Assembly: GCA_021781215.1 (NCBI GenBank)
Contig: JAJXXC010000008.1
Span: 6,965 to 70,964, forward strand
DNA: 64,000 nt
Source: a bacterium
GTDB taxonomy: Bacteria; Patescibacteriota; Saccharimonadia; Saccharimonadales; DATKHC01
Direction: 5' to 3'
The first letter of the stretch is position 1; every line of letters starts with the position of its first letter. The notes beneath the pieces are model-generated. The model made no database searches and was not told the origin of the DNA. It was given only the letters and a program-made list of their open reading frames with translations. This document shows, in pieces, positions 1 through 25,006 of the stretch. The translations under genes and the position numbers were made by a program.

Positions 1-282
1 AGCGGCGTGTTATCACTCCTAAGCAAAGACAATATTAATAACGAAGCGTTCAATATTGGAGATGATAGATCTGCGATATCGATACTTGAATTAGCAGAGC
101 TAATAGTTAAGGTTTTAGATTCGAAATCAAAAATAGTTATACTTGGAAACAATATCGAGGATGTAAAAACTAGAAGGCCAGACATAACCAAGGCCAAACA
201 GCTATTAGACTATAATCCCAAAGTTGATCTTAGCAAAGGGATTAGCGAAGTTGCAGGCTGGATCAGAAAAGACTCTAGGTAA
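1..282 (+). CDS. NAD-dependent sugar epimerase/dehydratase family protein, C-terminal fragment (UDP-glucuronate decarboxylase / ArnA-C-like); 5' end outside window
   Basis: The frame is open from base 1, and the track M at 7 is an internal GTG. The tail RRPDITKAKQLLDYNPKVDLSKGISEVAGW resembles the conserved C-terminal block of extended-SDR sugar decarboxylases/dehydratases. Stop at 280-282. Confidence 0.6.
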   Translation, partial: SGVLSLLSKDNINNEAFNIGDDRSAISILELAELIVKVLDSKSKIVILGNNIEDVKTRRPDITKAKQLLDYNPKVDLSKGISEVAGWIRKDSR

Positions 283-289
283 TAATGCT

Positions 290-1549: not shown

Positions 1550-1559
1550 TATATAAATT

Positions 1560-2774: not shown

Positions 2775-2791
2775 ATGGAGCGGTATATATT

Positions 2792-4606: not shown

Positions 4607-4607
4607 G

Positions 4608-5744
4608 CTAAATATTGAGGAAATTATTTATCTCACCTATAACGTAATCTTGGTCCTCCAAAGATAGAGTAGGGAACATTGGAATACTCAAACATCCAGC
4701 ATAATAATTCTCAGTATTAGTCAGCGGAGAATCACTTGCATTAAAATATTTAGCGTAAGCTGGCTGCATGTGAAGTGGTACATAGTGAACCTGGGCATAG
4801 ATACCTTTTGACTTCAGATAATCATACATGCCTTTACGATTTTTAACCTGGGTAGTATATAGGTGATAGGCATTAAGACCATTTGGTATATTCGATTGTA
4901 ATTTTATATTTTTATTATTTTCAAAAGCTTTAGTATACCTATCGGCTAATCGTCTTCTATTAGATAAATTTTCATTAATTCGAGACAGCTGGCTATTTCC
5001 AAGAGATGCATTAATATCACTCATTCTATAGTTATAGCCAACATCATCTATTTCGTAATACCAACCTTCTTCACTAGATTGCTGTTTCGACCTATCCATA
5101 TTATGTGATCGGGATAATTTAATTTTTTCGTATAGCTTAGGATTATTAGTTGTAATCATGCCTCCTTCGCCAGTAGTAATATGTTTAGCGGGATGAAATG
5201 AAAAAACTGTTATATCCGAATATTTTGCATTACCAACTAAATCATCATTAAGCACTCCGCCTAATGAGTGAGCCGCGTCTTCAATTAGCCAAAGTTTGTA
5301 TTTATCACAAATCGTTTTTAGTTTTATGACATCTGATGGGAGCCCGGCATAATCAACTGTAATAATCCCGGCATATTTATCTGGATTTTGAAGTAATCTT
5401 TTTTCGATTATATTAATATCCATTAGCAACGTTTGTGGATCTATATCAATAAATTCTATATTTCCACCACTATAGAGTACGGCATTAGCCGTGGCTGCAA
5501 ACGTTAAGGAAGGGAGTAAAACAAATTTATCTTTTGGAATACCTAATGCTTTTACGGCCAGGTGCAACCCAGCAGTTCCGCTCGAAACCGATAATGCGTA
5601 TTCTGATTGGACATATTTTCTAAAATTCTCTTCAAACAGAACTACATTTTCACCACCAGTTAAGAAACCAGACTTAAGAACACTGGTAACTGAATCAACA
5701 TCATTCTCCGTTATATCATGTTTTGCATAGGGTATATTGCGCAT
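4608..5744 (-). CDS. DegT/DnrJ/EryC1/StrS-family nucleotide-sugar aminotransferase (PseC/ArnB-like)
   Basis: Canonical family blocks are present: IPYAKHDITENDVDSVTSVLKSGFLTGG, SSGTAGLHLA and FSFHPAKHITTGEGG (the PLP lysine). Confidence 0.85.
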   Translation of the reverse strand: MRNIPYAKHDITENDVDSVTSVLKSGFLTGGENVVLFEENFRKYVQSEYALSVSSGTAGLHLAVKALGIPKDKFVLLPSLTFAATANAVLYSGGNIEFIDIDPQTLLMDINIIEKRLLQNPDKYAGIITVDYAGLPSDVIKLKTICDKYKLWLIEDAAHSLGGVLNDDLVGNAKYSDITVFSFHPAKHITTGEGGMITTNNPKLYEKIKLSRSHNMDRSKQQSSEEGWYYEIDDVGYNYRMSDINASLGNSQLSRINENLSNRRRLADRYTKAFENNKNIKLQSNIPNGLNAYHLYTTQVKNRKGMYDYLKSKGIYAQVHYVPLHMQPAYAKYFNASDSPLTNTENYYAGCLSIPMFPTLSLEDQDYVIGEINNFLNI

Positions 5745-5811
5745 TAGATCAGTCCTATCAATCTACTTTACAATTTAATTATATCTATACCTACAGAATT
5801 TAACTAAATTA

Positions 5812-6693
5812 CTATCTAAGTGCCTCAACTATAGTTTGGTGCAATTTGCCATTAGAGGTAATCGAACCGCCAGATCCATTACTTAGATCTTGAGTCCCAT
5901 CAATTGCCGTCCAAGTTCCGCCCGATTCTGCTATCCCGATTTTTACTGCCGCGATATCATGATACTCGGTTAGAAAATCTATCATCACATCAGCGTGACC
6001 TCTCATAATTTCAGCGTGACCAAAAGCATCAGCATATCCTCTTTCGGCATATGCACTTAAGACTATCTTTGATAATTGATCTAATCTATTAGCTTTTTTA
6101 GCAAAATCAATACCATTATGAAGTACATATGCCTCTGGAAGTGAGCTAACACTGGAAGCCTGAAGTTTATTAATTTTATTGTTAGATATCTCCCAGCAAC
6201 CTTTATTAATTTCAGCAAATATTAATTCATTTCTAGCAGGAAAAGTAATGAAGCCCGTGGTAGTTATATCTGTGTCATCTAGAGCTAAAAGTGTTGCCCA
6301 AAATTCTTGCCCATGTATGAACTGTATCGTGCCGTCAATTGGATCAAGCGTCCATAATCTACCATTCTTTGAATCTCGTAAAAATCCTTCTTCTCCCTGA
6401 AACCCATCATCGGGTAAAATTTTGCCAAGTCGGTTAAATACATACTCTTCGATAGCTTTATCGGCATAAGTTACTGGTGAACCATCGAGTTTATGTTCCA
6501 CAGAGTCTGATTTATGTTGATAGGATAGTGCTATACCGCCAACCGTTCTAATCATTGGCAATATCTCATCAAAAACCTCAGATCGAGGATATCCATCGTT
6601 TAGCCTATACAACTCATTCATAATGTACTGATTATATAACATTTGAGCGATATTATCAAGTATTCTAGGATGGCGACTATCCCATGACAGCAA
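5812..6693 (-). CDS. Inositol-monophosphatase-family phosphatase (SuhB/HisN-like sugar-phosphate phosphatase)
   Basis: It carries the FQGEEG and WTLDPIDGT metal-binding motifs of the IMPase family. An alternative later start at 6621 (MNELYRL) is possible. Confidence 0.75.
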   Translation of the reverse strand: MLSWDSRHPRILDNIAQMLYNQYIMNELYRLNDGYPRSEVFDEILPMIRTVGGIALSYQHKSDSVEHKLDGSPVTYADKAIEEYVFNRLGKILPDDGFQGEEGFLRDSKNGRLWTLDPIDGTIQFIHGQEFWATLLALDDTDITTTGFITFPARNELIFAEINKGCWEISNNKINKLQASSVSSLPEAYVLHNGIDFAKKANRLDQLSKIVLSAYAERGYADAFGHAEIMRGHADVMIDFLTEYHDIAAVKIGIAESGGTWTAIDGTQDLSNGSGGSITSNGKLHQTIVEALR

Positions 6694-6715
6694 GTAAAAA
6701 TAGGAAGATTTCCTT

Positions 6716-6988
6716 ATGAGGTGGTTTAGGCGTTATAATAAACGCATGGAAAGTGATAAAAAAATACAAGATAAAATTACTTGGCTTAACGAGAAATATC
6801 CGCCAGCTAAATGGGATTCAGTTGAGGGGTTTCACTCAACATCTTCAGTAACAATTGGATTAAATTCTAGTATAGATCCCGGGCGAGGAATAATTTTCAA
6901 GTTATTTATAAATACTGAAACGTCGGAGGTTAAATTCTTCCCTTATCGAGAATTTCTACACAAAGTAATAATGCCAAAGAAGAAATAG
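6716..6988 (+). CDS. Hypothetical small protein
   Basis: A 90-codon ORF that is first in a tightly packed 4-ORF string, with its stop 1 nt before the next ATG. No recognisable motif. Confidence 0.35.
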   Translation: MRWFRRYNKRMESDKKIQDKITWLNEKYPPAKWDSVEGFHSTSSVTIGLNSSIDPGRGIIFKLFINTETSEVKFFPYREFLHKVIMPKKK

Positions 6989-6989
6989 T

Positions 6990-7208
6990 ATGGCTGGCAT
7001 AAATCTTGACGAACAATTTAGAGAATTGTCAGATAAAGTTAAAAACATTAATACTACAATGGCACTCGTTGTTATTGTGTTATTCGTTGGTTTCATTACC
7101 ATGCTTGTTGGATTCATTAGTCTTATAGATAGTTCTAACGGAAGCAAGCAAGCTAGCTACCAGCAATTAGTTACCGAGGTACAACAGCTAAACGATAAGG
7201 TTAAATAA
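6990..7208 (+). CDS. Small single-pass membrane protein
   Basis: 72 aa with a central hydrophobic helix (MALVVIVLFVGFITMLVGFISLI) and a short coiled tail (QQLVTEVQQLNDKVK). The stop is immediately followed by the next ATG. Confidence 0.45.
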   Translation: MAGINLDEQFRELSDKVKNINTTMALVVIVLFVGFITMLVGFISLIDSSNGSKQASYQQLVTEVQQLNDKVK

Positions 7209-7265
7209 ATGAGTAAAAAACTACTCAAACAATTAATTAAACGGGCATCACAGAAAATTGTATGA
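7209..7265 (+). CDS. Candidate 18-codon micro-ORF (MSKKLLKQLIKRASQKIV), not in the ORF track
   Basis: The ATG directly abuts the upstream TAA (7206-7208) and the TGA overlaps the downstream ATG in an ATGA junction (7262-7265). An AAGG lies about 10-14 nt upstream. It encodes a basic amphipathic peptide. Confidence 0.25.
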   Translation: MSKKLLKQLIKRASQKIV

Positions 7266-7606
7266 AGATAAATGACAAACTAGTTAAGGGGTATGTTATT
7301 GGGTCGTCGGTAGCAATCTTAGCTCTTATTGGTGGCATGATTTATCTTGGAATGCAACTACATCAGGTTAATAAAAACGTTCAGGGTGTAAACAACACTA
7401 GTACTCCAGATTATTCGTCTCAACTTGATAGTATATCTAATTCTATTAGCGACTTAACTAATAAGGTGGGTAATCTTTCTACTCCAGGGTTCACATCTTT
7501 GACGTGTACAGGGTCTAATTCATCTGCAGGCTCTGGTAGTAGTATTGGAAGTTATACATCATACACCTTTAACGGTAGTATAACGCTTAACTGTAGACCC
7601 CTATAA
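7262..7606 (+). CDS. Membrane-anchored Ser/Thr/Gly/Asn-rich small protein
   Basis: 114 aa with an N-terminal TM helix (VIGSSVAILALIGGMIYLGM). The extracytoplasmic part is S/T/N/G-rich and has two Cys (LTCTG...LNCRPL). Confidence 0.45.
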   Translation: MKINDKLVKGYVIGSSVAILALIGGMIYLGMQLHQVNKNVQGVNNTSTPDYSSQLDSISNSISDLTNKVGNLSTPGFTSLTCTGSNSSAGSGSSIGSYTSYTFNGSITLNCRPL

Positions 7607-7700
7607 TCCTAAGTCCTTATCTAATCTGTCTACTTGCTGTTAAGGGATAGTCGCCGGGTGAATGAGCTTTTTTTAGCCCTATCTTGCAATAAAGTCCGTG

Positions 7701-7776
7701 TGGTGACCCCGGCGGGATTCGAACCCGCGATTTTCTGGATGAGAACCAGATGTCCTAACCGCTAGACGACGGGGCC
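7701..7776 (-). tRNA. tRNA-Glu (anticodon CUC), CCA encoded
   Basis: The reverse complement folds as a 76-nt cloverleaf. The acceptor is GGCCCCG/CGGGGTC (one G-U pair) and the D arm is GTCT-AGCGGTTA-GGAC. The anticodon arm is TCTGG-TTCTCAT-CCAGA and the T arm is GCGGG-TTCGAAT-CCCGC, followed by discriminator A and CCA. Confidence 0.9.
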
Positions 7777-7785
7777 AATTACTTC

Positions 7786-7794
7786 ATTCTAGCA
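7786..7794 (-). promoter_or_regulatory. Extended -10 element (TGCTAGAAT) upstream of tRNA-Glu
   Basis: The minus strand reads TGCTAGAAT about 10 nt upstream of the tRNA 5' end. The -35 is weak. Confidence 0.35.
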
Positions 7795-7874
7795 TAACAG
7801 ATCGTAGGAAAATATTAACTGATTAATGCTGCTTATGATTTGAATAGAAATAAATCTAATGTATCCTTGAAATC

Positions 7875-8159
7875 ATGACTATTCACGAAGAGTTAAGAAT
7901 AATTTCCACAGAACAATTGCTTGATGTTATGGAATCAGATTTTGAAACACCTCGTAGAAGTGAAGATTATGAAGACCACATGGACTACTTAAAGAATGCC
8001 TATCCGAATATATTTGAGTTTATAGTAAGGACGGTATCTGATGGGTTACCATTTGAAAGCGAAGAACAGGCTGACTTTTTCTTAGGTGGTGCAGTGTATG
8101 CGACCGTGGCCTTATGTAGAAACGCCGAAATTCTAGGCCTACGAAATAGTTTAAGTTAA
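7875..8159 (+). CDS. Hypothetical acidic small protein
   Basis: A 94-codon ORF in an otherwise empty gap, with no recognisable motif. Confidence 0.4.
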   Translation: MTIHEELRIISTEQLLDVMESDFETPRRSEDYEDHMDYLKNAYPNIFEFIVRTVSDGLPFESEEQADFFLGGAVYATVALCRNAEILGLRNSLS

Positions 8160-8264
8160 CGATTAACTAGCGTATTAAGTTATTTTATAACTGTTGGCTT
8201 AAATAAGAGACATTGGCTATAATAAAGACAAAGAACAAGCTTATGATGACTATAGAGGGCACCG

Positions 8265-10013
8265 ATGGTCGCAGATAAATATTACAAGATATATAGATGG
8301 TTTCTATTGGCGAGTTCAATAGGGATGATCATAGCCTGGGCCGTTTTTAACCTAGTGCCATCATTAAAAAACTCTGCGTCGAAGGACGGCTTAATACTTG
8401 CAGTCCTTATTTCTAACACTATATCCGTAATCTATCTTTTGGCATTCTTCAACATTGTTGGCAAAAAATTTAACTATTGGCAATCAACACTTTTAGGTTT
8501 ATTAATATTTACATTTGGAGTTGGAGCGGCAATTAGGATAGATACCGTATCTCATTCTGGAATCGCTTTGCTTTATTTTGTCATCGTATGGCTAATCCAA
8601 ATGGCATGGTCGGGGATATTTGGTTGGCAGGCAATTGTAATTTTGAACTTTTTTACCATAACTTTTGTCTATTTTGGAGGCTTCTCGAATAAATATCTTC
8701 TCTTAATGGTATTTGGCGGTTTAATTCTAAGCCCACTATTTCAGATATTAGTATGGGGGAAACTTCAGGGTAAGGTTTTCGATGGGATAAATCGAAATAA
8801 TAAAATAAATCCTCTTAGCGGGACAATGGGTGAATCAAGGTCTAGTGCGGAAGGGCTAATCAATTCAATCAACGAGGGTGTAGTTGTAATCGACAAAACT
8901 AGTAGAATTACTATTTTTAATCCGACGGCCGAAGTTCTAACTGAATGGTCTTCTGATGATGCGAAGAATATTGACGTCAATTTAGTTGTAAAAATACTCC
9001 AAGAAAATGGTCAACCTTTTTCCCAACAAGACAATCCATTTAATTCCATCCTTCAGACACAAAAAAAGATTGATTCGACTGTGCAACTAGTAAGCAAATC
9101 AGGCAAACAAATCTTTATTTCTTTAGTGGCTGCGCCAATTATCGTTAACGGCCAAATGACCGGAGTGGCCTTTACTATGAGGGATATCACGGTTCAGCGA
9201 AATGCCGAGCAACAAAAATTAGACTTTATATCAACCGCTAGTCACGAAATGCGTACCCCGGTAGCGGCTATAGAAGGGTATTTATCTCTGGCCCTAAACG
9301 ACAAAACTAGTAGTATCGATGCAAGGGCAAGGGGATTTCTAGAAAAGGCTCATAATAGCACTAGGCAATTAGGCAAACTATTTCAAGATTTATTAAACAG
9401 CTCTAAGGCGGAAGACGGCAGATTAACCAATCACCCGGAAGTTATTGAGCTAAGTGATTACATTAGTAAAATGGCGGAAGGATTTCAACTTGCTGCAGAA
9501 CAAAAGCATCTAATAGTAAACTTTACACTTATAAATACTAAACCCGACCAAGCAGCCCCTCAGGGCAAAATAATTACACCCTTATTTTACGTATACGTTG
9601 ACCCAAGTCGCCTAATGGAAGTATTAACCAACCTGTTTGATAACGCCGTAAAATATACTGAAGCCGGAAGTATTACCATAGGCCTTGGTGGTACCGACAC
9701 TGAAGTTACATTATCAGTCAAAGATACTGGTGTCGGCATACCGGCCGAGAGCATCGATCATCTATTTCAAAAATTTTACCGAGTAGACAATTCGGCGGTT
9801 AGAACTATTGGCGGGACAGGATTAGGGCTATATATAAGTAAAAAAATTGTCGAACTATACAGAGGAAGAATCTGGGCTGAAAGCGAAGTTGGAAAGGGTA
9901 CTACTTTCTTTATTAATTTACCTAGACTATCCCAACAACAGGTTGAAACCCTTAGATCTCAAAACGATTCGCAAACACAAACTACTACATCGGCAATTAA
10001 TCCAACGGTGTAA
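8265..10013 (+). CDS. Membrane sensor histidine kinase (multi-TM N-terminus, PAS-like, HisKA, HATPase_c)
   Basis: The N-terminal half is hydrophobic. It has an H-box FISTASHEMRTPVAAIEGY, an N-box LFDNAVKYT, a G1 box DTGVGI and a G2 box GGTGLGL. Confidence 0.9.
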   Translation: MVADKYYKIYRWFLLASSIGMIIAWAVFNLVPSLKNSASKDGLILAVLISNTISVIYLLAFFNIVGKKFNYWQSTLLGLLIFTFGVGAAIRIDTVSHSGIALLYFVIVWLIQMAWSGIFGWQAIVILNFFTITFVYFGGFSNKYLLLMVFGGLILSPLFQILVWGKLQGKVFDGINRNNKINPLSGTMGESRSSAEGLINSINEGVVVIDKTSRITIFNPTAEVLTEWSSDDAKNIDVNLVVKILQENGQPFSQQDNPFNSILQTQKKIDSTVQLVSKSGKQIFISLVAAPIIVNGQMTGVAFTMRDITVQRNAEQQKLDFISTASHEMRTPVAAIEGYLSLALNDKTSSIDARARGFLEKAHNSTRQLGKLFQDLLNSSKAEDGRLTNHPEVIELSDYISKMAEGFQLAAEQKHLIVNFTLINTKPDQAAPQGKIITPLFYVYVDPSRLMEVLTNLFDNAVKYTEAGSITIGLGGTDTEVTLSVKDTGVGIPAESIDHLFQKFYRVDNSAVRTIGGTGLGLYISKKIVELYRGRIWAESEVGKGTTFFINLPRLSQQQVETLRSQNDSQTQTTTSAINPTV

Positions 10014-10083
10014 TGTTTCCATGATATAATCATAATCAGTATAATATTTACAATTCTTAACAAACTAAAAAAGGAATAAAACC

Positions 10084-11040
10084 GTGACTAAAATAATGTT
10101 AGTCGAAGACGACAACAACTTAAGAGAGATTTATCAAGCCCGTCTAAATAGTGAAGGCTATGAAACCGTTACGGCTTCTGATGGAGAGGAAGCTTTATCT
10201 ATCGTTGGTCGCGAAAAACCTGATCTAATTATCCTTGATGTTATGATGCCTAAGATTAGTGGTTTCGATACCCTAGACCTACTTAAAAACTCGCCCGTGA
10301 CTAAAGATATTAAAGTAATAATGATGACTGCATTGTCTCAAGCCGAAGATAGAGCCAGGGCTGAAAAGCTTGGTGCCCAAAATTATCTTGTAAAATCTCA
10401 AGTAACACTTGAGGATATCGTTAAGGCTGTAAAGGATGCTATAAGTGGCGTAGACGCTTACTCTGCGGAGGCGCCATCAAATTCAGCACAAGCTACAACT
10501 ACTTCGGTTTTTAATTCAGCACCAGTTGAGCAACCGGTTCCAACAACCAATGATTCAATGGTCACACCAACAGCCGAGCCATCACTAACCGAGCCACAAC
10601 CAAGCGAGATGGTTTCTCCTCAGATTCCATCAGAAGCTCCAATAGAAAACCCCGTAGTTAACCCTACGGATGCAATGAATGTTGAGCATGTAGATAATCC
10701 TATGGCTCAACAAGAAACAGCTCCAGATAATATGGCTACAGCTGTAGATTTCAATTCAGCACCAATTGAGCAACCGGCTCCAGTAACCAATGAGGCGATG
10801 GTCGCGCCAATAGCCGAGCCATCATTGCCTGAAGCGCAGCCAGCTGAAATGTTTTCTCCTCCAGCTCCAATAGAAACCCCAATAGTAAACCCTACTGACG
10901 CTATGAATGTTGAGCATGTAGATAATCCTATGACTCCACAAGAAGCTACGACTCCAGATAATATTACAGCCCCGCTAAATACCGACTCAAACCAACCAAT
11001 TGCTCAATCCGAGCAAATCAACACTAATACTCAGATTTAA
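10084..11040 (+). CDS. Response regulator: canonical receiver domain plus about 190-aa Pro/Thr/Glu/Ala-rich tail with an internal duplication; no recognisable output domain
   Basis: It has a GTG start. The receiver motifs are intact: VEDD, LIILDVMMP (phospho-Asp), MMTAL and LVKS. The tail is low-complexity and repeated. Confidence 0.85.
   Translation: MTKIMLVEDDNNLREIYQARLNSEGYETVTASDGEEALSIVGREKPDLIILDVMMPKISGFDTLDLLKNSPVTKDIKVIMMTALSQAEDRARAEKLGAQNYLVKSQVTLEDIVKAVKDAISGVDAYSAEAPSNSAQATTTSVFNSAPVEQPVPTTNDSMVTPTAEPSLTEPQPSEMVSPQIPSEAPIENPVVNPTDAMNVEHVDNPMAQQETAPDNMATAVDFNSAPIEQPAPVTNEAMVAPIAEPSLPEAQPAEMFSPPAPIETPIVNPTDAMNVEHVDNPMTPQEATTPDNITAPLNTDSNQPIAQSEQINTNTQI
10510..10975 (+). repeat. 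Tandem in-frame duplication, period 240 nt (80 codons), two copies inside the response-regulator tail
   Basis: Copy 1 starts FNSAPVEQPVPTTNDSMVTPTAEPSL...NPTDAMNVEHVDNPM at 10510. Copy 2 starts FNSAPIEQPAPVTNEAMVAPIAEPSL...NPTDAMNVEHVDNPM at 10750. Long identical nucleotide runs occur, for example aatgttgagcatgtagataatcctatg. Confidence 0.9.
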
Positions 11041-11051
11041 GACATATATCG

Positions 11052-11708
11052 ATGCGTATTAATCAATTCGTAGCCCAAGCTACAGGTTTAAGCCGTCGAA
11101 AATCAGATAAAATAATTAAAGATGGGCGTGTAACAGTTAATGGCTTGCTGGCCTATCTAGGTCAACAAGTTGAACCTAAGGATATTATTAATTACGACTC
11201 CCAGACTCTTAAGCTAGCAAAAAACCATGTAACCTTATTATTAAATAAGCCAATCGATTATGTGTGCTCTAGGGATGGCCAGGGCAGTAAGACTATTTAT
11301 GAGTTGATACCAGATAGTTATAGAAAGCTAAAGTCCGTTGGTAGACTCGACAAGGATTCGTCGGGATTAATTGTATTAACAGACGACGGACAACTCGCTC
11401 AAAAATTATCTCACCCAAGTTTCAATAAACAAAAAATTTACGAAGTTAAACTGAATAGAGAATTAACTACTGGAGAGATAGATCAGCTACAAAACGGTCA
11501 GATCAGATTAGATAAAAAACCCAGTATTCTTAAAATTAAAAAAATAAAAAACAGATTATACCTAATTACTATATCTGAAGGCAGAAATCGTCAAATTAGA
11601 CGTACTTTTGATAAATTAAATATTCTGGTGACCGAGCTAAATCGCATTCAATTTGGGTCATATAAACTCAAGGATCTAAAGGGCAGGAATTGGATTAAAC
11701 TGAACTAA
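11052..11708 (+). CDS. Pseudouridine synthase, RsuA/RluB family (S4 domain + catalytic domain)
   Basis: An N-terminal S4-like domain (RINQFVAQATGLSRRKSDKIIKDGRVTVNG) is followed by the catalytic block GRLDKDSSGLIVLTDDG. Confidence 0.85.
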   Translation: MRINQFVAQATGLSRRKSDKIIKDGRVTVNGLLAYLGQQVEPKDIINYDSQTLKLAKNHVTLLLNKPIDYVCSRDGQGSKTIYELIPDSYRKLKSVGRLDKDSSGLIVLTDDGQLAQKLSHPSFNKQKIYEVKLNRELTTGEIDQLQNGQIRLDKKPSILKIKKIKNRLYLITISEGRNRQIRRTFDKLNILVTELNRIQFGSYKLKDLKGRNWIKLN

Positions 11709-11736
11709 ACCAAAAATAGCAAATACAATAGTTTTA

Positions 11737-11745
11737 TGATATAAT
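11737..11745 (+). promoter_or_regulatory. Extended -10 element (TGATATAAT) upstream of der
   Basis: TGnTATAAT lies about 44 nt upstream of the der ATG. Confidence 0.4.
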
Positions 11746-11788
11746 ATAGCATAAATACAGTTTGTTAAAGAAAGAAAAATATACTTAA

Positions 11789-13150
11789 ATGAAAAAACTA
11801 CCAATTATAGCTATTGTAGGAAGAGCAAATGTGGGAAAATCCAGTATCTTCAACACGCTACTTAGGACTCGTGAGGCAATTGTTGCTAAAGAAGCGGGCA
11901 CTACCAGAGATTCAATCATGGGTAAGGTGAGCTACGGTAATCAAGATTTTTGGATAGTTGATACAGCCGGGATGAAGGATGCGGCTGACGACTTCGAGGC
12001 AACTATCCAAGAGCAAATTACACAAGCCGTTGATAGCGCTGAAGTAATTTGTGTAGTAATTGAGGCTGACACTATTCTTACTAACGAGGATAGAAAAGTT
12101 GCTCAACTGGCACTTAAGAGTAAGAAACCCATAGTCCTAATCGTGAATAAGGTAGACAAGGTTAAAAACTTTGAAGTGTCTGATTATCAAAAATTAGGAA
12201 TCAAAACTATACTCCCAACTAGTGCGACTCAAACAAGAGGATTTGACGCTCTTTTAGAAGAATTAACTAATCTAATACCGAAAACTAAAGACCGAGACAA
12301 TGATGATATTATTCGTTTAGCAATAGTTGGACGACCCAACGTTGGAAAATCACAGCTGTTTAACACTCTCCTGAAAAAACAACAGGCTGTAGTAGCTGAT
12401 CGTGCCGGTACCACTAGAGATGTAAATAAAATATCAATTAGATTCGAAAACAAACAAATCCAATTAATGGACACGGCCGGCATTAGACGAAGCGGCAAAA
12501 TCGGTCAGGGAATCGAACATTTCAGCGTCATTAGGACCTTAGCTGCTATTGAAAGTTCAGATATTTGTTTACTATTAATTGACGTAAATGAACTTAGCGT
12601 AGCATTAGATCAAAAAATAGCAGGCATGGTCAAGGATGCAAATAAGGGGCTCATTATAGTAGTTAGTAAGTGGGATAGCCTGGATGAAAAAACGCCATAT
12701 ATACATGATGAGTTAATCCCAAGGATAAGACACGAGTACCAGTTCGTACCATGGGCTCCGGTAGTATTTACGAGTGCCATAACCGGACAGAATGTGACTA
12801 AGCTACTCTCTCTAAGTCTAGAGATTTTTACCTCAAGAAACAGAAAAATTAAAACTAGTGAATTAAATAAATGGCTGAGGGATGCTTTGGCTAAACACCC
12901 GCCTGCAGGACTTAAGAATACCAATCCAAAATTAAACTACATGCTCCAAGAAGATGATAATAGTAGTCCAAACTTTAAGATCTACGGTTCTCACACTAGG
13001 TATCTGCACTGGAGTTATAAACGATTCCTTGAAAGAGAGTTGCGAGAAAAATACGATTTTGCAGGTACGGCAATTAAATTATGGTTCTTTGAAAAACATA
13101 TTGATAGAATAAAAAAACCTATAAAATTACCTCCATACAGGAAATCATAA
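11789..13150 (+). CDS. der: GTPase Der (EngA), tandem GTPase domains + KH-like C-terminus
   Basis: It has two P-loops (GRANVGKSS and GRPNVGKSQ), two DTAG motifs and NKVD/SKWD motifs. Confidence 0.95.
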   Translation: MKKLPIIAIVGRANVGKSSIFNTLLRTREAIVAKEAGTTRDSIMGKVSYGNQDFWIVDTAGMKDAADDFEATIQEQITQAVDSAEVICVVIEADTILTNEDRKVAQLALKSKKPIVLIVNKVDKVKNFEVSDYQKLGIKTILPTSATQTRGFDALLEELTNLIPKTKDRDNDDIIRLAIVGRPNVGKSQLFNTLLKKQQAVVADRAGTTRDVNKISIRFENKQIQLMDTAGIRRSGKIGQGIEHFSVIRTLAAIESSDICLLLIDVNELSVALDQKIAGMVKDANKGLIIVVSKWDSLDEKTPYIHDELIPRIRHEYQFVPWAPVVFTSAITGQNVTKLLSLSLEIFTSRNRKIKTSELNKWLRDALAKHPPAGLKNTNPKLNYMLQEDDNSSPNFKIYGSHTRYLHWSYKRFLERELREKYDFAGTAIKLWFFEKHIDRIKKPIKLPPYRKS

Positions 13151-13151
13151 T

Positions 13152-13790
13152 ATGGGTCTATTTGTTAATAAACCACTGCCCAGTGACAATAAATACTTCT
13201 ACACTTTGGGACAAACTAAGACCGTGCTTATCGTTGGACTAGGAAATATCGGTAAAGAATTTAACCATACGAGGCACAATATTGGCTTTGATTGCTTGGA
13301 TTTTTTTCTTGGAAAAAACACCCAAATGAGCCAATGGATAGAAAAAAAGAACCTTAAATGTCATGTTAGTATGGGTCAATTTGGTGACACTCGAACAATA
13401 GCAATAAAGCCAACGACATATATGAATCTAAGTGGAGAATCGGTTGAGTTGGTATTAAATTTTTATAAGATAAGACCTGAAGATATTTTAGTAGTCCACG
13501 ATGAGTTAGATATAGATTTTGGACATATAAGGCTTAGACTTGGTGGTAGTAGCGCAGGGAATAATGGCGTCCAGTCAGTTATAGATAAAATAGGTGATAA
13601 TTTTAATAGAATTAGGATAGGTATTGGTCCTAAAAACAGCAAAATACCAGCCGATAAATTTGTTATAGCTAGATTTAATAAAGACGAAGATTTAAGTATT
13701 CAAGAGCTTAAAAAAGAAGTGCAGTCAATTATTACTGAATTTATATATGGTGGAAAAATAAACCAAGAAACTAGATCTTTTTTGTCATAA
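13152..13790 (+). CDS. pth: Peptidyl-tRNA hydrolase
   Basis: It contains LIVGLGNIGKEFNHTRHNIGF and VHDELD blocks. The ATG lies 1 nt after the der stop. This start gives about 25 aa more N-terminal sequence than typical Pth, and an internal GTG start is possible. Confidence 0.9.
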   Translation: MGLFVNKPLPSDNKYFYTLGQTKTVLIVGLGNIGKEFNHTRHNIGFDCLDFFLGKNTQMSQWIEKKNLKCHVSMGQFGDTRTIAIKPTTYMNLSGESVELVLNFYKIRPEDILVVHDELDIDFGHIRLRLGGSSAGNNGVQSVIDKIGDNFNRIRIGIGPKNSKIPADKFVIARFNKDEDLSIQELKKEVQSIITEFIYGGKINQETRSFLS

Positions 13791-13833
13791 AAAAAACGAA
13801 CCTACAGAGGGGGTGGGCACCGCTGTAGGTTCG
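13789..13833 (-). terminator. Intrinsic-terminator-like hairpin oriented for the minus strand (11-bp perfect stem, 15-nt loop, U8 tail)
   Basis: CGAACCTACAG (13797-13807) pairs with CTGTAGGTTCG (13823-13833). A8 at 13789-13796 becomes T8 after the hairpin on the minus strand. There is no T-run on the plus-strand side. Confidence 0.45.
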
Positions 13834-13871
13834 ATTATACCCTTCAACCCACCTGAGTGAAGCGTCAAATA

Positions 13872-14325
13872 CCTTAATCCATAATGGTAATGCGCCGACC
13901 GTTAAAAGTCGTTTTGGAAGACTCACTGACCCACCAAAAGGGTCCAAGCCATCATATAAATATGACAGAGAGGAGTGTTAAAGGGGTTAGTATGCTTTAG
14001 AGCGCATATTAGCTCAAAATAAATTTGAGCAGACGCACATTAGATAGTGGAGGGTAACAACTTACTTATGGCACGCTCTAAAACAATCTAACTATAATAG
14101 TTAGAATAGGGGTATAAGGTACATAAGTCATGAATATCATGCTTACAGGTTGCCATTTTAGCAAATATATGTTTTGCTGTCAATACTATTTAAGCAATGC
14201 GTATTATTGTCAAATTTCTTATGCTTGTAGTAAAATATGTTATACCAGGCAACCTAGATAGAGCTTGCATAAAACCAAGCAGTCCAGTAATCTTACAGTT
14301 TGGATATATAAATTAATTAAGGATT
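13872..14325 (+). ncRNA. rnpB: Probable RNase P RNA (bacterial type A-like, atypical); ends approximate
   Basis: The 537-nt ORF-free gap has collinear plus-strand matches to conserved type-A blocks. These are GGGUCCAAGCC (P4 5' strand, 13940-13950), ACAGAGAG (13965-13972), GUUAAAGGGG...UUAGAGCGCA (13977-14006) and GGCACGCUCUAAAAC (14070-14084). They continue with AAUAGGGGUAUAAGGUAC (14105-14122), CCUAGAUAGAGC (14253-14264), a P18-like hairpin (14263-14280) and ACAGUUUGGAU (P4 3' strand, 14295-14305). GUCCAAGC/GUUUGGAU can form P4. The J3/4 region deviates from the consensus GAGGAAAGUCC. Confidence 0.6.
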
Positions 14326-14327
14326 AA

Positions 14328-16613
14328 ATGAGCAAGCAACTAGTTATTGTAGAGAGTCCTGCAAAGGCAAAAACCATAGAAAAATACTTAGGCAGCTCCT
14401 ACCAAGTGATGAGTAGTTTTGGCCATATTCGTGATTTACCAAAGAAACATTTAAACATAGACGTTAATGATAATTTTAAACCCACCTATGAAGTTAGTGA
14501 TGATAAGAAAAAAGTCGTTTCGGCCCTAAAAAAAGCTGCGAAAGAATCAGAACAGGTATGGCTAGCTAGTGATGAGGATAGGGAAGGAGAAGCAATAGCT
14601 TGGCACTTATGCTATGCACTAGGTCTAGATCCTAAAACTACAAAACGAATTGTATTCCATGAGATAACTAAATCAGCTATAACCGAAGCTATTAAGCACC
14701 CTAGGGTTATAGATATTAATCTAGTAGACGCTCAACAGGCCAGAAGAATACTTGATAGGCTCGTTGGCTATGAGCTAAGTCCGGTGCTTTGGAAAAAAGT
14801 CAGACCACAGCTTAGTGCCGGAAGAGTCCAATCAGTAGCAGTAAGACTGATTGTTGAAAGAGAAAGAGAAATAAATTCTTTTACACCAACGAGTGAGTAT
14901 AGAGTAAACGCACAATTTAAACTAGAAGACACTCAGCTACCCGCAGAGCTAAATACTAGATTTAAAAATCTAGAAGAGACTAAAGAATTTTTAGAGGGCT
15001 GTATAGGTTCTAAGTTTACGGTTTCAAAAATAGACGACAAGCCCGGTAAGCGAACACCAGGAGTGCCATTTACAACCAGCACGCTACAACAAGAGGCGTC
15101 TAGGGCACTTGGTTTCAGTGTTAGACAAACAATGACTCTAGCCCAAAAACTATATGAGAACGGTATTATCACATATATGAGGACTGACTCCCCAACACTA
15201 TCCGAACAATCTCTCGGCAATATTAAAGATTATGTAATTAACACTTTTGGACAAGATTATTATCACAGAAGACAATTCAAATCTAAACACTCGAGTGCTC
15301 AAGAAGCCCATGAAGCAATCAGACCAACTGATCTAAGTATTGATAAAGTACAGGACGAAGGACAGAATAGATTATACAATTTGATCTGGAGAAGAACCGT
15401 TGCAAGCCAGATGGCAGAAGCCAAATTAGCAAAAACTGAAATTACCGTTACTGTAGACAAAAGAAAAGAACTATTTTTAGCCAAGGGCGAAGTTGTGATA
15501 TTCGATGGTTTTCTAAAAGTATCGGGCAGAGCAACAAAAGACATCTTATTACCGAAGTTATCTGAAGGACAAAACCTAGACTATGATCAAATAATTGGGA
15601 GGCAAAATTTCTCCAAACCCAAGCCAAGATACTCTGAAGCAAGTTTAGTTAAAAAATTAGAAGAGCTCGGTATCGGCAGGCCAAGTACATATGCACCAAC
15701 TATTTCAACCATCCAAAACAGAGGATATGTTGAAAAAACAGATTTAGAAGGCAAGGAACGGCCAGTAGAAACAATAACCCTGTCCAACGATTCACTCTCC
15801 GAAACTGTTGAATTAGAAAACTACGGACAAGATAAATCTAAATTATTACCCACCCCAACAGCCGACGTTACGACCGACTTTCTGATGAAAAACTTTGGAT
15901 CAATTGTAGATTACGATTTTACGGCTAAGGCTGAGAAAGATTTCGATCTCGTAGCTGAAGGCAAAGAAAAATGGCAAGCGATGCTACAAAAATTCTATTC
16001 TGACTTTCATGAATTAGTAATTAAATCCGATAGCGTAACTAGGGAAGAGAGCACACAAACTAGACTAGTGGGCAAGGATCCAAAATCCGGAGAACAGATT
16101 TTTGCTAGGTATGGTAGGTTTGGCCCAATGTTACAAAAAGGTGACGCAGCGGATGAAGATAAAAAACCGGCATTTGCTTCATTGCCCAAAGATACTACTA
16201 TCGAAAGCGTAACCCTCGAACAGGCACTGGAGATGTTTAGCCTGCCAAGAATTGTCGGCAAAACGGATGACGGGCAAGAAATCACTGCCAACATCGGACG
16301 TTTTGGCCCATATATTAAAATCGACAAAACTTTTATATCTATAAAACCCCTAGATCCCTTATCTATAACCGAAGCAGAGGCAAGAACATACTATCTAGAA
16401 AATAAAGAAAAATTATCCAAGAAATATATAAAAGAATTTGATAGTGGCATTAAAATTGTTAATGGGCCCTACGGACCCTACGTAACAGATGGAAAGAAAA
16501 ACGGAAAAATACCTAAGGATACAGACGAAAATAAATTAACTGAGGCGGAAGCCAAGGAAATACTTGCAAAAGCACCAGCCAAAAAAAGATCTTTTAGAAG
16601 AAAGAAAAAATAA
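14328..16613 (+). CDS. topA: DNA topoisomerase I (type IA), Cys-free C-terminal repeats and Lys-rich tail
   Basis: It has Toprim motifs (VIVESPAKAKTI, SDEDREGEAIAWH), the active-site YMRTDS, and C-terminal GRFGPM/GRFGPY/NGPYGPY repeats. Confidence 0.95.
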   Translation: MSKQLVIVESPAKAKTIEKYLGSSYQVMSSFGHIRDLPKKHLNIDVNDNFKPTYEVSDDKKKVVSALKKAAKESEQVWLASDEDREGEAIAWHLCYALGLDPKTTKRIVFHEITKSAITEAIKHPRVIDINLVDAQQARRILDRLVGYELSPVLWKKVRPQLSAGRVQSVAVRLIVEREREINSFTPTSEYRVNAQFKLEDTQLPAELNTRFKNLEETKEFLEGCIGSKFTVSKIDDKPGKRTPGVPFTTSTLQQEASRALGFSVRQTMTLAQKLYENGIITYMRTDSPTLSEQSLGNIKDYVINTFGQDYYHRRQFKSKHSSAQEAHEAIRPTDLSIDKVQDEGQNRLYNLIWRRTVASQMAEAKLAKTEITVTVDKRKELFLAKGEVVIFDGFLKVSGRATKDILLPKLSEGQNLDYDQIIGRQNFSKPKPRYSEASLVKKLEELGIGRPSTYAPTISTIQNRGYVEKTDLEGKERPVETITLSNDSLSETVELENYGQDKSKLLPTPTADVTTDFLMKNFGSIVDYDFTAKAEKDFDLVAEGKEKWQAMLQKFYSDFHELVIKSDSVTREESTQTRLVGKDPKSGEQIFARYGRFGPMLQKGDAADEDKKPAFASLPKDTTIESVTLEQALEMFSLPRIVGKTDDGQEITANIGRFGPYIKIDKTFISIKPLDPLSITEAEARTYYLENKEKLSKKYIKEFDSGIKIVNGPYGPYVTDGKKNGKIPKDTDENKLTEAEAKEILAKAPAKKRSFRRKKK

Positions 16614-16730
16614 AAATAACTTCATAACAAAACCACCATTTAAAATAATAATGTTATAGAAGTATTGTATTCACATATTTTGTGTTTTTATGTCTATTTA
16701 ATGTTACAATAGTATTAAGATACTTTAGTA

Positions 16731-16759
16731 TTGACTTAGAGGGAAATTTATTATAAAAT
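16731..16759 (+). promoter_or_regulatory. Sigma70-type promoter (TTGACT-17 nt-TAAAAT) for the 16789 gene
   Basis: The -35 TTGACT is at 16731-16736 and the -10 TAAAAT at 16754-16759, with a GGAG Shine-Dalgarno before the ATG at 16789. Confidence 0.5.
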
Positions 16760-16788
16760 AAGAGCAATGAACTGCTCTGGAGATAATA

Positions 16789-17835
16789 ATGAACGATAAA
16801 ACAATCCTGGTGGATATAACTAAAACAGTTAACGATATCTTGGGATCAATAGAACATGAGCGAGAAAGAGAAATAATCTCTAGGCGCTTTGGTCTATTTG
16901 ATAGAAAAGAAACCTTAGAGCAAATTGGTGAATTACTTGGAATTACTCGAGAAAGAGTCAGACAGTTAGAAAAAGTAATTCTAACTAGATTAAAGTTGTC
17001 CGCAAAAGAAGGGAAGCTTAGTGGTATTAATGAGCTTCAGAGTATATTAAAAGAAACAATCAATGATCATGGTGGAATTATGAGAGTAAGTGAGCTTGGT
17101 CTTTATCTGACTAAAGCAAACTCAAAGATTGACCAAGCTCAGGTATATTTCGTTTCAGAGATGTGCCCTGATCTCATAGTTATTCCTGACAGCGATATTT
17201 TTTATCAAAGCATTGGAATATTAGCAATGCATGATGCAGCTGAAATTAAAAAACTAGTAGATATGATTACTGCTACTATTAAAAAAATTGGGGTTCAGAC
17301 AAGTATAGAGAAGGTGACTAGCGAGTTTGGTAGTGATTTAGGAACCCAAAGGATTAGAGCCCTAGCTAGTATATCTAAACAACTTGCAACCTTAAATGGC
17401 AAATGGGGACTAATTAAATGGCCTACAGTGAATCCTAAGAACATTAGAGATAAAATATACGTTATTCTAAAAGAAGAAGAATCTCCGCTACATTTCAATA
17501 AAATTTCTGAAGCTATTAAGAAATCAAGTTTTAAGCGAAAAGATGTTACAACCCAAGCCATACACAATGAATTGATAAAAGATAAGCGTTTTGTATTAAT
17601 TGGTCGCGGTATATACGCATTAAAAGAATGGGGTTACGAAAAAGGAACCGTAGCAGATATAATTGCGAATGTATTAAGAAAAGCCAACAAACCCCTACAT
17701 AGAGATGAAATTATTAAAGAAGTTCTAAAGAGTCGTTTTGTGAAAGAAACTACTATTTTACTTAATCTCCAGGGTAAATCTCAATTCAAGAGAGTTGCAA
17801 AAGCCACATACAATTTAGATGAGTCGGTTAATTAA
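16789..17835 (+). CDS. DNA-binding protein with N-terminal sigma-70 region-4-like HTH and two C-terminal HARE-HTH-like winged-helix modules
   Basis: REIISRRFGLFDRKETLEQIGELLGITRERVRQLEKVILTRLK matches the sigma region 4.2 pattern. IYVILKEEESPLHFNKISEAIKK...DKRFVLIGRGIYALKEWGY and IIANVLRKANKPLHRDEIIKEVL match the HARE-HTH (RNAP delta N-terminal-like) pattern. No sigma region 2 is present. Confidence 0.6.
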   Translation: MNDKTILVDITKTVNDILGSIEHEREREIISRRFGLFDRKETLEQIGELLGITRERVRQLEKVILTRLKLSAKEGKLSGINELQSILKETINDHGGIMRVSELGLYLTKANSKIDQAQVYFVSEMCPDLIVIPDSDIFYQSIGILAMHDAAEIKKLVDMITATIKKIGVQTSIEKVTSEFGSDLGTQRIRALASISKQLATLNGKWGLIKWPTVNPKNIRDKIYVILKEEESPLHFNKISEAIKKSSFKRKDVTTQAIHNELIKDKRFVLIGRGIYALKEWGYEKGTVADIIANVLRKANKPLHRDEIIKEVLKSRFVKETTILLNLQGKSQFKRVAKATYNLDESVN

Positions 17836-17986
17836 AAACTACCACTGTTTCGCATCTGTTAATTAGATTATACACAACAAGAACATTTTACGAACAATAT
17901 ATAAAGTTCAGTATGAACAGTGGTGAATGATAATATAGCCTAAATATTTGAAATAAGTTAAATAAATATATAGCTAGCAGGGACAT

Positions 17987-18042
17987 AAAAAAAATAAACA
18001 CGCCTAAAAAATACTGGTTTAAAGTTGGAGCAGGGCGTGTTT
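17987..18042 (-). terminator. Intrinsic-terminator-like hairpin on minus strand (9-bp stem, 29-nt loop, A + U8 tail)
   Basis: AAACACGCC (17996-18004) pairs with GGCGTGTTT (18034-18042). The minus strand reads stem-loop-stem followed by ATTTTTTTT (the complement of 17987-17995). Confidence 0.5.
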
Positions 18043-18473
18043 CCATTCAATAGATCAATATAGATTTCATGTCGCACAATGTACCTTTTGCGACGCGCTA
18101 TATTAATTTATAGTTGTCTTGTTACTCATCCCTTACAGGGGATTAGCAAGCATAATGATTGATATTGTATCAACTTTATATTACTTAGATAAATCAGATA
18201 CACTGCATTACATCTCTAACATACATATTTATATTTCTTCTATACTACCTAGCGTTAAATTATAATATTTGACACTATACTAAAAATGTTATATTTGACT
18301 TTTCCACAGCTTGTTGACTTATATGTTTTTTTATACTGCCCTACCTTTTTTATATATTATCAAAAAAAGTACTCAATTTATATTTTTGCATGTACTTATT
18401 ATTACATGTATAAATATAATAATTTTATTACACTGAACATTTTACGAACACGTGGGGGATGATAGTGGGGCGT

Positions 18474-19355
18474 TCACTTATAAAAAGCTTTTCCGGTAAC
18501 TCGTAAATCGATATACTGTGTCGGCATCGGTAGATTATTTGTTTTTAGATACTTTAGCGTCGCTAGATACGTCCCTACCTGATAGTTTGAGCTATCCAAT
18601 AGATTATATTTTGCTATAAAACCCTCCCCCCTACTCTGCACATCTATTTCGAACGGTAAGTTGGGCAATACTATATCTTGAATTGTTATTCCTTTTTTTG
18701 AATACTGGTAGATTACATTTTTAATAAACGTTACCGAATTAGTTGATATAAAACTCTTACCTAATGAAACTCTCGAATTACTCCGATCTATTAAAGTCAC
18801 TAATTTCGTCGAATTCATCTGTTTTAAAGAATTAAACTTTATAACAGCGACTCCCTGGTCGTTTAACATGTAATATCCGGTAGAGTTTTCAAGATTTAGC
18901 GCAGGTTCAGACACTTTTAGCACCAGGTTTAACTTGTGTCCATAAATCGGTATTATAACTGTTACGGAACTAAATTCGGGATAATCTGACTTAAACTGTC
19001 TAGCTACGCTATTAGAGTTAATGGTAAATTTACTTTTATTTAAGATAGATTTATCGAGTATCGATTTGATTGTTTGCTGATATTGGGCTTTACTATGTAT
19101 GAACTTTATACCATTTGTATTGCCCCTAATAATGATTTGAGGATTACTATTTAGCGTAGTTATGTAAAACAGAGTTGCTACTATAACAATGAACGAAACA
19201 ATCGCTGGTAATTGTTTTAAAAAATTTAGATTTTTAGGATTTTTCTTCTTATTGTGAGCTTTTATTTGTGAATGATACGTGAACTTATGAGTTGATAAAT
19301 TATCAATCGGGTCCATTTTTCTTACGTTAGTTTTATTGGATTTTAATTTGATCAT
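18474..19355 (-). CDS. FtsQ/DivIB-like cell division protein (N-terminal TM + POTRA-like region)
   Basis: It occupies the position after murG in the dcw cluster. It has one TM helix (LPAIVSFIVIVATLFYI) followed by a POTRA-like segment (YPEFSSVTVIIPIYGHKLNLVLKVSEPAL). Confidence 0.6.
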   Translation of the reverse strand: MIKLKSNKTNVRKMDPIDNLSTHKFTYHSQIKAHNKKKNPKNLNFLKQLPAIVSFIVIVATLFYITTLNSNPQIIIRGNTNGIKFIHSKAQYQQTIKSILDKSILNKSKFTINSNSVARQFKSDYPEFSSVTVIIPIYGHKLNLVLKVSEPALNLENSTGYYMLNDQGVAVIKFNSLKQMNSTKLVTLIDRSNSRVSLGKSFISTNSVTFIKNVIYQYSKKGITIQDIVLPNLPFEIDVQSRGEGFIAKYNLLDSSNYQVGTYLATLKYLKTNNLPMPTQYIDLRVTGKAFYK

Positions 19356-24918: not shown

Positions 24919-25006
24919 TGCAAGTATAAAAAAAGGAAAACTACACTTTTAATGCGCAGTTTTCCACAGGTATGATTTATACACCATATACAGTGTCTAG
25001 GTTCGA

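Follow-up and report, generated by a model that had tools for sequence, protein, structure and literature searches.

Described dif sites consist of two partly symmetric arms of ~11 bp that enclose a central region of 6-8 bp, with 11-6-11 as the published layout, and linkage of a xer gene to its site is known for XerS/difSL and belongs, like this layout, to the way in which dif, difSL/XerS, and XerA have been defined in print (PMC5357621). We analyzed a 64-kb stretch from a member of the Saccharimonadales (contig JAJXXC010000008.1 of assembly GCA_021781215.1; in the following, "the window" refers to this whole stretch), in which a gap at positions 17836-18473 separates two convergent genes. The organism belongs to the Candidate Phyla Radiation (CPR)/Patescibacteria, which account for a major part of bacterial diversity and, with few exceptions, have not been cultured; their chromosome biology is barely described. 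The gap most likely represents a conserved cluster of DNA sites and not an RNA gene, a decayed element, or a coding gene. Based on sequence comparison, we moderately favor the interpretation that this cluster marks the convergence point of the chromosome and is centered on a candidate CPR dif site.

The center of the cluster is an imperfect palindrome of 24-28 bp, with its inner 24 bp at 18071-18094, in which the arms GTCGCACAA and TTTTGCGAC enclose the hexamer TGTACC. A preliminary description of the gap had listed it as the second of four hairpins (17996-18004/18034-18042, 18071-18094, 18128-18143, and 18159-18173), without singling it out as a recombinase-type palindrome spread throughout the CPR. 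All four hairpins are present in the window, with conservation being confined to hairpin 2 and to the motif TACAGGGGA within hairpin 3. Relatives were gathered by a protein search with the FtsQ-like product of the gene right of the gap, followed by retrieval of the contigs, and carry FtsQ proteins 57-74% identical to that of the window; a genome scan with FtsQ peptide patterns yielded no relatives. The core is invariant in these relatives as well as across CPR classes, and it is unique within the 64-kb window, half-sites included. Scanning one-genome-per-species GTDB contigs with the core 20-mer CGCACAATGTACCTTTTGCG gave 24 matches, with ~1 being expected by chance, and never more than one match per genome. 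Approximately 21 of the 24 are found in CPR genomes (Saccharimonadia, Andersenbacteria, Shapirobacteria, Parcubacteria, and Patescibacteria), while the three non-CPR matches are located inside open reading frames (ORFs) and do not have the left arm. With few exceptions, the core of the CPR loci is situated between genes, and the genes on its flanks, whose identity differs between classes, are convergent; counting ORFs of at least 120 aa around it, 155 point toward the core and 12 away. A search of a limited literature collection for the core sequence and for dif/Xer in CPR returned no relevant paper.

Comparison of 55 distinct contexts revealed the anatomy of the site. Variation is almost absent from positions 0-8 (GTCGCACAA) and 15-23 (TTTTGCGAC), T9 and C14 are likewise (near-)invariant, and positions 10-13 vary, resulting in ten different centers (including TGTACC, TGATAC, TGTAGC, TAATAC, TATAAC, and TGTATC). 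In one core variant, GTCGTA...TACGAC, both arms are altered jointly. Conserved arms around a free 6-bp center are the anatomy of a tyrosine-recombinase core site and match the published 11-6-11 dif, the two-arm organization of dif/Xer sites being present in GTCGCACAA-TGTACC-TTTTGCGAC. With the 28-bp dif of E. coli (GGTGCGCATAA-TGTATA-TTATGTTAAAT) the core shares the inverted arms and the 6-bp center, and, judged by the scan of one genome per species, probably also the single copy; in a hand alignment, 15 of 28 positions are identical, and 14 of 18 in CGCAnAATGTAnnTTnTG. The likeness would extend to the location at a probable junction of chromosome polarity domains and to G-rich polar words, which converge as the FtsK-orienting polar sequences (KOPS) do. 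Unlike in E. coli, the two CPR arms are nearly identical to each other, suggesting one recombinase rather than an XerC/XerD pair, conservation is poor at the outer arm positions, and the core resides within a conserved non-coding region of ~640 bp together with companion sites. Near-symmetric arms are shared with archaeal XerA/dif. In contrast to difSL, with its center of 11 bp, the CPR center spans 6 bp, and the sequence is unrelated to difSL or to difH, the site of XerH. Comparison with parS, the LexA box, RTP/Tus Ter, and matS was made by eye only and showed the wrong symmetry, spacing, or copy number, and a hairpin telomere (protelomerase site) was rejected as the two flanks are different unique DNA.

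A link to a recombinase was found outside of the Saccharimonadia. In four such loci, orthologous tyrosine recombinases are encoded at a distance of 0.3-1.7 kb from the site; these proteins combine the domains Phage_integrase and SAM_1 and end C-terminally in ...LGHKNIATTQIYTH. Utilizing the four proteins as alignment query against metagenome contigs, we obtained 80 xer loci, of which 27 contain the site with at most four mismatches (chance expectation ~5e-5 per locus). In all 27 site-bearing loci, which belong to one CPR clade, the site precedes xer at a distance of 59-3649 bp and always has the same orientation. The xer gene being linked to the site in one CPR clade resembles XerS/difSL (PMC5357621); unlike in that system, the gene is non-adjacent in the Saccharimonadia loci, including the window. 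On the NCBIfam equivalog models of both XerC and XerD the recombinases align over their full length and reach 229-248 bits, below the cut-offs of ~330, and on the archaeal XerA model 213-223 bits at a cut-off of 220, thus scoring about equally on all three. Judged by these scores, the CPR recombinases are members of the Xer family that are unassignable to XerC or XerD. The xer-linked clade additionally shows, in nine loci, a conserved module ~165 bp left of the core (TTTTCACGAA ... TTGATATAGTTTGATATAGT ... a GC-rich stretch of ~13 bp ... TGTGGATAA), the layout of which loosely resembles a DnaA box followed by repeats.

The arms are also carried by phages. We found GTCGCACAA-N6-TTTTGCGAC in 60 IMG/VR contigs, with one site per contig in 59 of them and a second, degenerate arm copy at a distance of 67 bp in one. 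These sites comprise 30 different centers, none of which equals a chromosomal center, so that integration by recombination of a phage attachment site with the chromosomal site is doubtful, at least for the hosts sampled. They reside in non-coding stretches of 0.7-1.4 kb with divergent genes (405 pointing away, 153 toward), several of them immediately upstream of terS/terL, the terminase genes, or next to a gene for a primase, and in 7 of 20 contigs examined at full length the site is found in the outer 6% of the contig. Copies of AACAGGGGT/ACCCCTGTT occur within 320 bp of the site in 14 of the 60 contigs, in a few on both sides, and a Xer-like gene is near the site in only one of the 60. Phage P1 places loxP near pac. 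By analogy, phage copies with centers of their own fit a site that would be used by the host Xer recombinase, and the same arms with other centers recall the way in which the plasmid sites cer and psi relate to dif.

Within the chromosomal gap, the core is accompanied by further conserved sites. The gap of the relatives is located in the same synteny and is 637-653 bp long, and its alignment has a mean column identity of 72%, with invariant islands between AT-rich spacers bearing indels. These islands comprise ATCTGTTA, the left 16-mer, AGYAGGG with an A-tract, CAACAGAT..TAGAT, GTCGCACAATGTACCTTTTGCGACG, ATAGTTG, CCYTACAGGGGATTA, a block of ~100 bp with ATTTGACAC and ATTTGACTTTTCCACAGCTTGTT, CTGCCCTGC, and a right block ACTGAACAWTTTACGAACAYGTGGGGGAT.AT.GTGGGG. 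In the window, the following features were assigned:

17854-17861, no strand: motif ATCTGTTA just past the stop of the gene encoding a 348-aa helix-turn-helix (HTH) protein; (near-)invariant in the alignment, recurring in relatives, and the inverted partner of CAACAGAT at ~18047
17881-17896, plus strand: left 16-mer GAACATTTTACGAACA, i.e., GAACA-N6-GAACA, an exact copy 190 bp left of the core
17976-17998, plus strand: AGCAGGG followed by an A-tract; RGYAGGG and the A-run are conserved, and AGYAGGG is polar in the window
18048-18065, no strand: left-flank motifs CAAYAGAT...TAGAT; in the alignment, an ATAGA-type motif lies 6-20 bp from the core
18069-18096, plus strand: candidate dif core at-GTCGCACAA-TGTACC-TTTTGCGAC-gc with two inverted arms of 9-11 bp and a 6-bp center
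18110-18116, no strand: ATAGTTG, conserved in the alignment of relatives
18134-18145, plus strand: companion motif TACAGGGGATTA, 61 bp right of the core, forming the 3' arm of hairpin 3
18249-18275, plus strand: block CTAGYGT ... ATTTGACAC, conserved in the alignment
18293-18315, plus strand: ATTTGACTTTTCCACAGCTTGTT, invariant in the alignment and holding the DnaA-box-like 9-mer TTTTCCACA (18300-18308)
18320-18345, no strand: TATATGTTTTT and CTGCCCTRC, an inverted GCAGGG copy, followed by a very AT-rich variable stretch of ~90 bp
18432-18470, plus strand: right block ACTGAACATTTTACGAACACGTGGGGGATGATAGTGGGG with the right 16-mer (18435-18450), the end of which lies 23 nt before the ftsQ stop codon

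The right block with its 16-mer is also found ~110 nt past ftsQ in a distant locus. In the xer-linked clade, TGATATAG motifs, which are similar to the left-flank CAAYAGAT...TAGAT, adjoin the DnaA box.

The two 16-mers had already been reported as a perfect direct repeat unlikely to recur by chance. Both copies of GAACATTTTACGAACA were confirmed at 17881-17896 and 18435-18450, no further exact copy exists within the 64 kb, and the repeat occupies the same two places in every relative. Each copy consists of two GAACA half-sites 11 bp apart (GAACA-N6-GAACA), a pattern with no further exact copy in the window and found nowhere else in the 8-21 kb examined per relative locus. Most Saccharimonadia have it on both sides of the core in direct orientation, the left copy being placed at -173 to -250 (-516 to -568 in four loci) and the right copy at +358 to +453 (+164 to +565 in three of the same four); in CPR classes other than Saccharimonadia, the pair was not seen. 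The spacer is lineage-specific (TTTTAC, AAWWTA, or AAAACC) and alike in both copies of one genome, which implies that lineage-specific constraint acts on the entire 16-mer, a pattern to be expected if its binding protein co-evolves with it; homogenization of the two copies is an alternative. With half-sites one helical turn apart, the 16-mer looks like a head-to-tail dimer site. Direct half-sites at this distance are the binding mode of OmpR/ArcA-type regulators. An Xer core with flanking conserved sequences is also found in plasmid cer and psi, which involve ArgR or ArcA together with PepA, and on this analogy we suggest, with low confidence, that the 16-mers may be accessory or architectural sites around the core. 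The accessory sequences of cer and psi are located on one side within ~180 bp on a plasmid, whereas the CPR repeats stand on both sides, at 190 and 364 bp, on a chromosome.

Direct repeats invite a second interpretation, in which the 16-mers would be the attachment-type repeats of a small element, integrated or excisable, that corresponds to the 554-bp segment between them. The direct orientation of both copies and their (near) identity within a genome, combined with a spacer differing between lineages, would agree with it. However, the segment occupies the same syntenic place across the Saccharimonadia with no empty site seen, contains no recombinase or mobility gene, and varies in length from 550 to 1100 bp between the repeats, and the GAACA...GAACA half-site pattern is itself conserved, as for a protein-binding site. 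We consider an element of this kind very improbable. For the corresponding suggestion of the preliminary description, a decayed element with att-like repeats, the decay finds no support, as the arrangement is syntenic across a bacterial class; since the two repeats do co-evolve, an excisable segment keeps a small probability. Its other proposal of paired protein-binding sites is borne out in spirit, the conservation pattern being that of DNA sites. A 9-bp inverted repeat around the left copy (17841-17849/17916-17924) is present in the window and is not conserved in relatives. The motif TACAGGGGA of hairpin 3 is conserved at +61 to +65 from the core in Saccharimonadia; a role as KOPS was rejected because of the wrong orientation.

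A third type of companion is a DnaA-box-like block, TTTTCCACAG, at +229 from the core and invariant in the relatives. The DnaA-box consensus (TTATNCACA) is matched by TTTTCCACA/TTATCCACA near the core across the CPR and upstream of mraZ. In the 55 contexts, TTWTCCACA occurs 35 times within 320 bp to either side of the core, compared with 1.75 occurrences expected from the rest of the loci (Poisson P ~5e-33). Its position is fixed per clade, either at +204 to +249, at +43 to +55, or inverted at approximately -165 beside TTGATATAG repeats. Unlike the DnaA boxes at dnaA/oriC, the CPR box is usually single and situated at a convergent junction, and binding of DnaA to it is putative. A second TTTTCCACA (as AGTTTTCCACAGG) is located at 24960-24968 within the promoter region of the division and cell wall (dcw) operon, at ~50 bp upstream of mraZ, and TTTTCCACAGG at this place is invariant in five relatives. 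Such sites thus bracket both ends of the cell-division operon, and the conserved TTTTCCACAGG may indicate that DnaA, or a binder resembling it, acts as a transcription factor.

The genomic setting of the cluster is that of a convergence point. Left of the gap, a plus-strand gene at 16789-17835, 3' of topA, encodes the 348-aa Sigma70_r4/HARE-HTH protein. Right of it, the FtsQ-like gene at 18474-19355 on the minus strand is the final gene of a mraZ-rsmH-ftsL-mraY-ftsW-murG-ftsQ operon. Gene orientation flips at the gap from plus (8265-17835) to nearly all minus (18474-57465). The skew of G over C at third codon positions (GC3 skew) of the right arm, in coding-strand terms, amounts to +0.155 for minus-strand and -0.185 for plus-strand genes; hence, the minus strand is G-rich at these positions regardless of gene direction. 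This right-arm skew is strongly replication-like. On the plus strand, the third-codon skew steps at the gap from ~0 (1-18000) to ~-0.16 (18500-64000). A rearrangement could have produced this step, as could a polar barrier located at the gap or forks that meet over a broad zone to its left. Among the hexamers, GCAGGG has the strongest skew in the converging sense (16:0), and AGYAGGG points toward the gap in a ratio of 11:1 (3:1 on the plus strand in the left arm, 0:8 in the right arm), including all three copies inside counter-oriented genes; this skew is suggestive of polar words and is confounded with coding-strand composition. Taken together, convergent genes, right-arm skew, and polar words indicate that replication forks run toward the gap, and from this convergence we infer a probable replication terminus.

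The same features need to be weighed for the opposite assignment, a replication origin, either oriC or a second, plasmid-like one, with a DnaA box, an AT-rich stretch, and iteron-like repeats. The DnaA-box-like 9-mer is 20-fold enriched at the site and present in two to three copies in a few loci, the very low-GC stretch of ~90 bp adjoins the box, the GAACA repeats co-evolve as iterons do, and phage copies are found in large non-coding regions, some of them beside primase genes. Yet the genes converge at 155:12 and the right-arm skew has the forks running toward the site, most loci contain a single box, and the conservation of this box in the mraZ promoter region suggests a transcription-factor role. 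Neither dnaA nor dnaN was among the 20 flanking ORFs from ~17 GTDB loci or in the Pfam annotation of the window and its close relatives. A DnaA-box cluster with an unwinding element at a divergence point near dnaA/dnaN, as in an oriC, was not found at the gap. An origin at this position would put >90% of the genes head-on, a situation that to our knowledge has no precedent in bacteria. An origin is therefore very unlikely. As the GC3 skew shifts without changing sign, the call between origin and terminus leans mainly on gene orientation.

The order ftsQ -> site <- (traG/virD4-like) <- HTH gene <- topA is kept in Saccharimonadia. The 348-aa Sigma70_r4 and HARE-HTH protein is a kept neighbor of the site with 42-73% identity in six loci and is a candidate binder for one of the conserved motifs. 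Further candidate binders of the 16-mer, of TACAGGGGA, or of the TTTTCCACAG box are DnaA and an OmpR-type regulator, the gene of which is found at 10084-11040. Also in six loci, a gene for a TraG/VirD4-like coupling protein of ~900 aa directly adjoins the site and separates it from the HTH gene; with its Pfam domains TrwB_AAD_bind, T4SS-DNA_transf, and DUF87/HerA, it represents an ATPase of the FtsK/HerA superfamily adjoining the putative dif. The protein of the closest relative (GCA_035531815.1) is labeled "Candidatus Dormibacteraeota bacterium" by NCBI, yet its contig shows the Saccharimonadia-type synteny and the site as in the window, so that the label is probably a binning or taxonomy error.

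A structured non-coding RNA (ncRNA) or a long 3' untranslated region (UTR) of ftsQ had been among the initial explanations for the gap. Several features could speak for it, namely the pyrimidine/GGGG pairing at 18128-18143, which tolerates G-U on the plus strand, the TTGAC-type -35-like hexamers at 18268-18300, and a T-run on the minus strand. The Rfam 15 covariance models (6S RNA, transfer-messenger RNA (tmRNA), RNase P, signal recognition particle RNA, and others) were applied with gathering thresholds to the whole window and with E<=10 to the gap. The covariance-model scan proposed for the gap returned nothing at gathering thresholds and only chance-level matches at E<=10, the best being STnc180 with 20 bits against a gathering score of 50. 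ARAGORN detected no tmRNA and a single tRNA-Glu, located outside the gap, and a promoter/terminator scan found promoter-like sites no more frequently than in shuffles and zero terminators. The RNAalifold covariation term for the core region (+0.17) gives no support either, and the placement of the DnaA-box motif relative to the core differs between CPR classes (+45, +230, or inverted at -170), which fits modular DNA sites and not one RNA fold.

The terminator that had been proposed on the minus strand at hairpin 1 (18042-17985) is weak and finds no support. While the A-run at 17985-17998 is present, the 9-bp stem with its 29-nt loop folds with -12.7 kcal/mol (z -1.5), 18 of 200 shuffled sequences reach an equally good fold, the hairpin was missed by the terminator scan, and folding of five relatives shows no equivalent hairpin that could covary. 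Hairpin 4 has no conservation in the alignment. The syntenic alignment that had been suggested as a check thus retained the 16-mers, hairpin 2, and TACAGGGGA, and gave no support for hairpins 1 and 4 or for covariation. The described "GC-richer core" is merely the location of the conserved sites within a gap of 638 bp and 28.7% GC, compared with 35.8% GC in the window. A 58-aa ORF at 18286-18462 and other small ORFs were rejected since start or frame is lost among relatives, and translated similarity over the DNA islands appears in every frame on both strands, which is not the pattern of a protein-coding gene.

A benchmark for an RNA gene is available in the same genomes. The pth-topA gap at 13791-14327 shows 91% identity between relatives with protein identities of 60-74%, and it is kept in a more distant locus. 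Its minus strand (~14150 to 13792) folds into a structured RNA of ~360 nt, ~4 kb from the studied gap, with a TTGACA-17-TAAAAT promoter (14183-14155), a terminator (hairpin with T8) beside the stop of pth, and compensatory changes in 12 pairs. Neither Rfam, even at E<=10, nor ARAGORN gives a match to it. On sequence grounds, it ranks as a strong ncRNA candidate, either undescribed or highly divergent. The studied gap, with its islands amid indel-rich and AT-rich spacers, is unlike this RNA, leaving the RNA reading unsupported; neither Rfam, covariation, nor the conservation pattern favors a small RNA or a 3'-UTR-derived one, and we regard an RNA as very unlikely.

In the mechanism that would correspond to a dif site, the near-identical arms GTCGCACAA/TTTTGCGAC would be the binding sites of a tyrosine recombinase of the Xer family, and strand exchange over the 6-bp center of 18069-18096 would turn chromosome dimers into monomers before division. 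The companion islands, i.e., the 16-mers at -190/+364, TACAGGGGA at +61, AGYAGGG/CCCTRC, and TTTTCCACAG at +229, would serve as protein-binding sites. Several observations weigh against a dif site. No Xer gene is found in the 64-kb window or beside the site in any Saccharimonadia locus. The GC3 skew changes from ~0 in the left arm to ~-0.17 in the right arm with no change of sign, and the other loci have too few "away" genes for a pooled comparison of their GC3 skew with that of "toward" genes to be informative. The orientation of TACAGGGGA at +61 is the opposite of that required from a KOPS-like element. A classical chromosomal dif needs no accessory sites, the role suggested for the 16-mers being an analogy, and the tight association of a DnaA-box-like 9-mer with the core is not predicted by classical dif biology. 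Finally, invariant half-sites with a free spacer would also fit the operator of a dimeric DNA-binding protein.

This last point leads to the interpretation of the palindrome as operator or landmark of another dimeric protein, such as a terminus organizer, a fork-barrier protein, or a transcription factor, with the other islands as further sites. Apart from the variable spacer, the several further conserved motifs around the palindrome are in line with this, the abrupt skew shift without sign change is a possible product of a polar fork barrier, and phages carrying the same arms in large non-coding regions are a frequent finding for host regulator sites. On the other hand, one site per genome between convergent genes, with no gene downstream, is unlike an operator, the fixed-orientation linkage to xer in 27 of 27 loci points to a recombinase, and a spacing of exactly 6 bp with invariant T9 and C14 is that of cleavage positions. 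An operator or landmark is, in our assessment, unlikely, and we retain the candidate dif site as the preferred explanation.

As a more far-reaching and, at present, improbable possibility, the CPR might possess a so far undescribed "terminus module", i.e., a single-recombinase dif core in a fixed array with the DnaA box, the GAACA-N6-GAACA sites, and ACAGGGG sites. Through this array, the replication status (via DnaA) and a dedicated protein would control dimer resolution or the cell-division operon, and phages would copy the core and ACAGGGG in order to borrow the host recombinase for cyclization or multimer resolution near their packaging genes.

If the candidate dif is confirmed, a 24-bp mark of the terminus or of dimer resolution would exist in most CPR classes, providing a landmark for checking assemblies of metagenome-assembled genomes, for their orientation, and for estimates of replication rates. 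Likewise, the reduced CPR genomes would have kept an Xer system, apparently with a single recombinase, the core would offer a concrete substrate for biochemistry, and the shared arms would serve as a host-linking signal for CPR phages, as in the 60 IMG/VR contigs. The DnaA box and the co-evolving paired sites beside the core provide a lead on how replication, dimer resolution, and division may be coupled in these bacteria.

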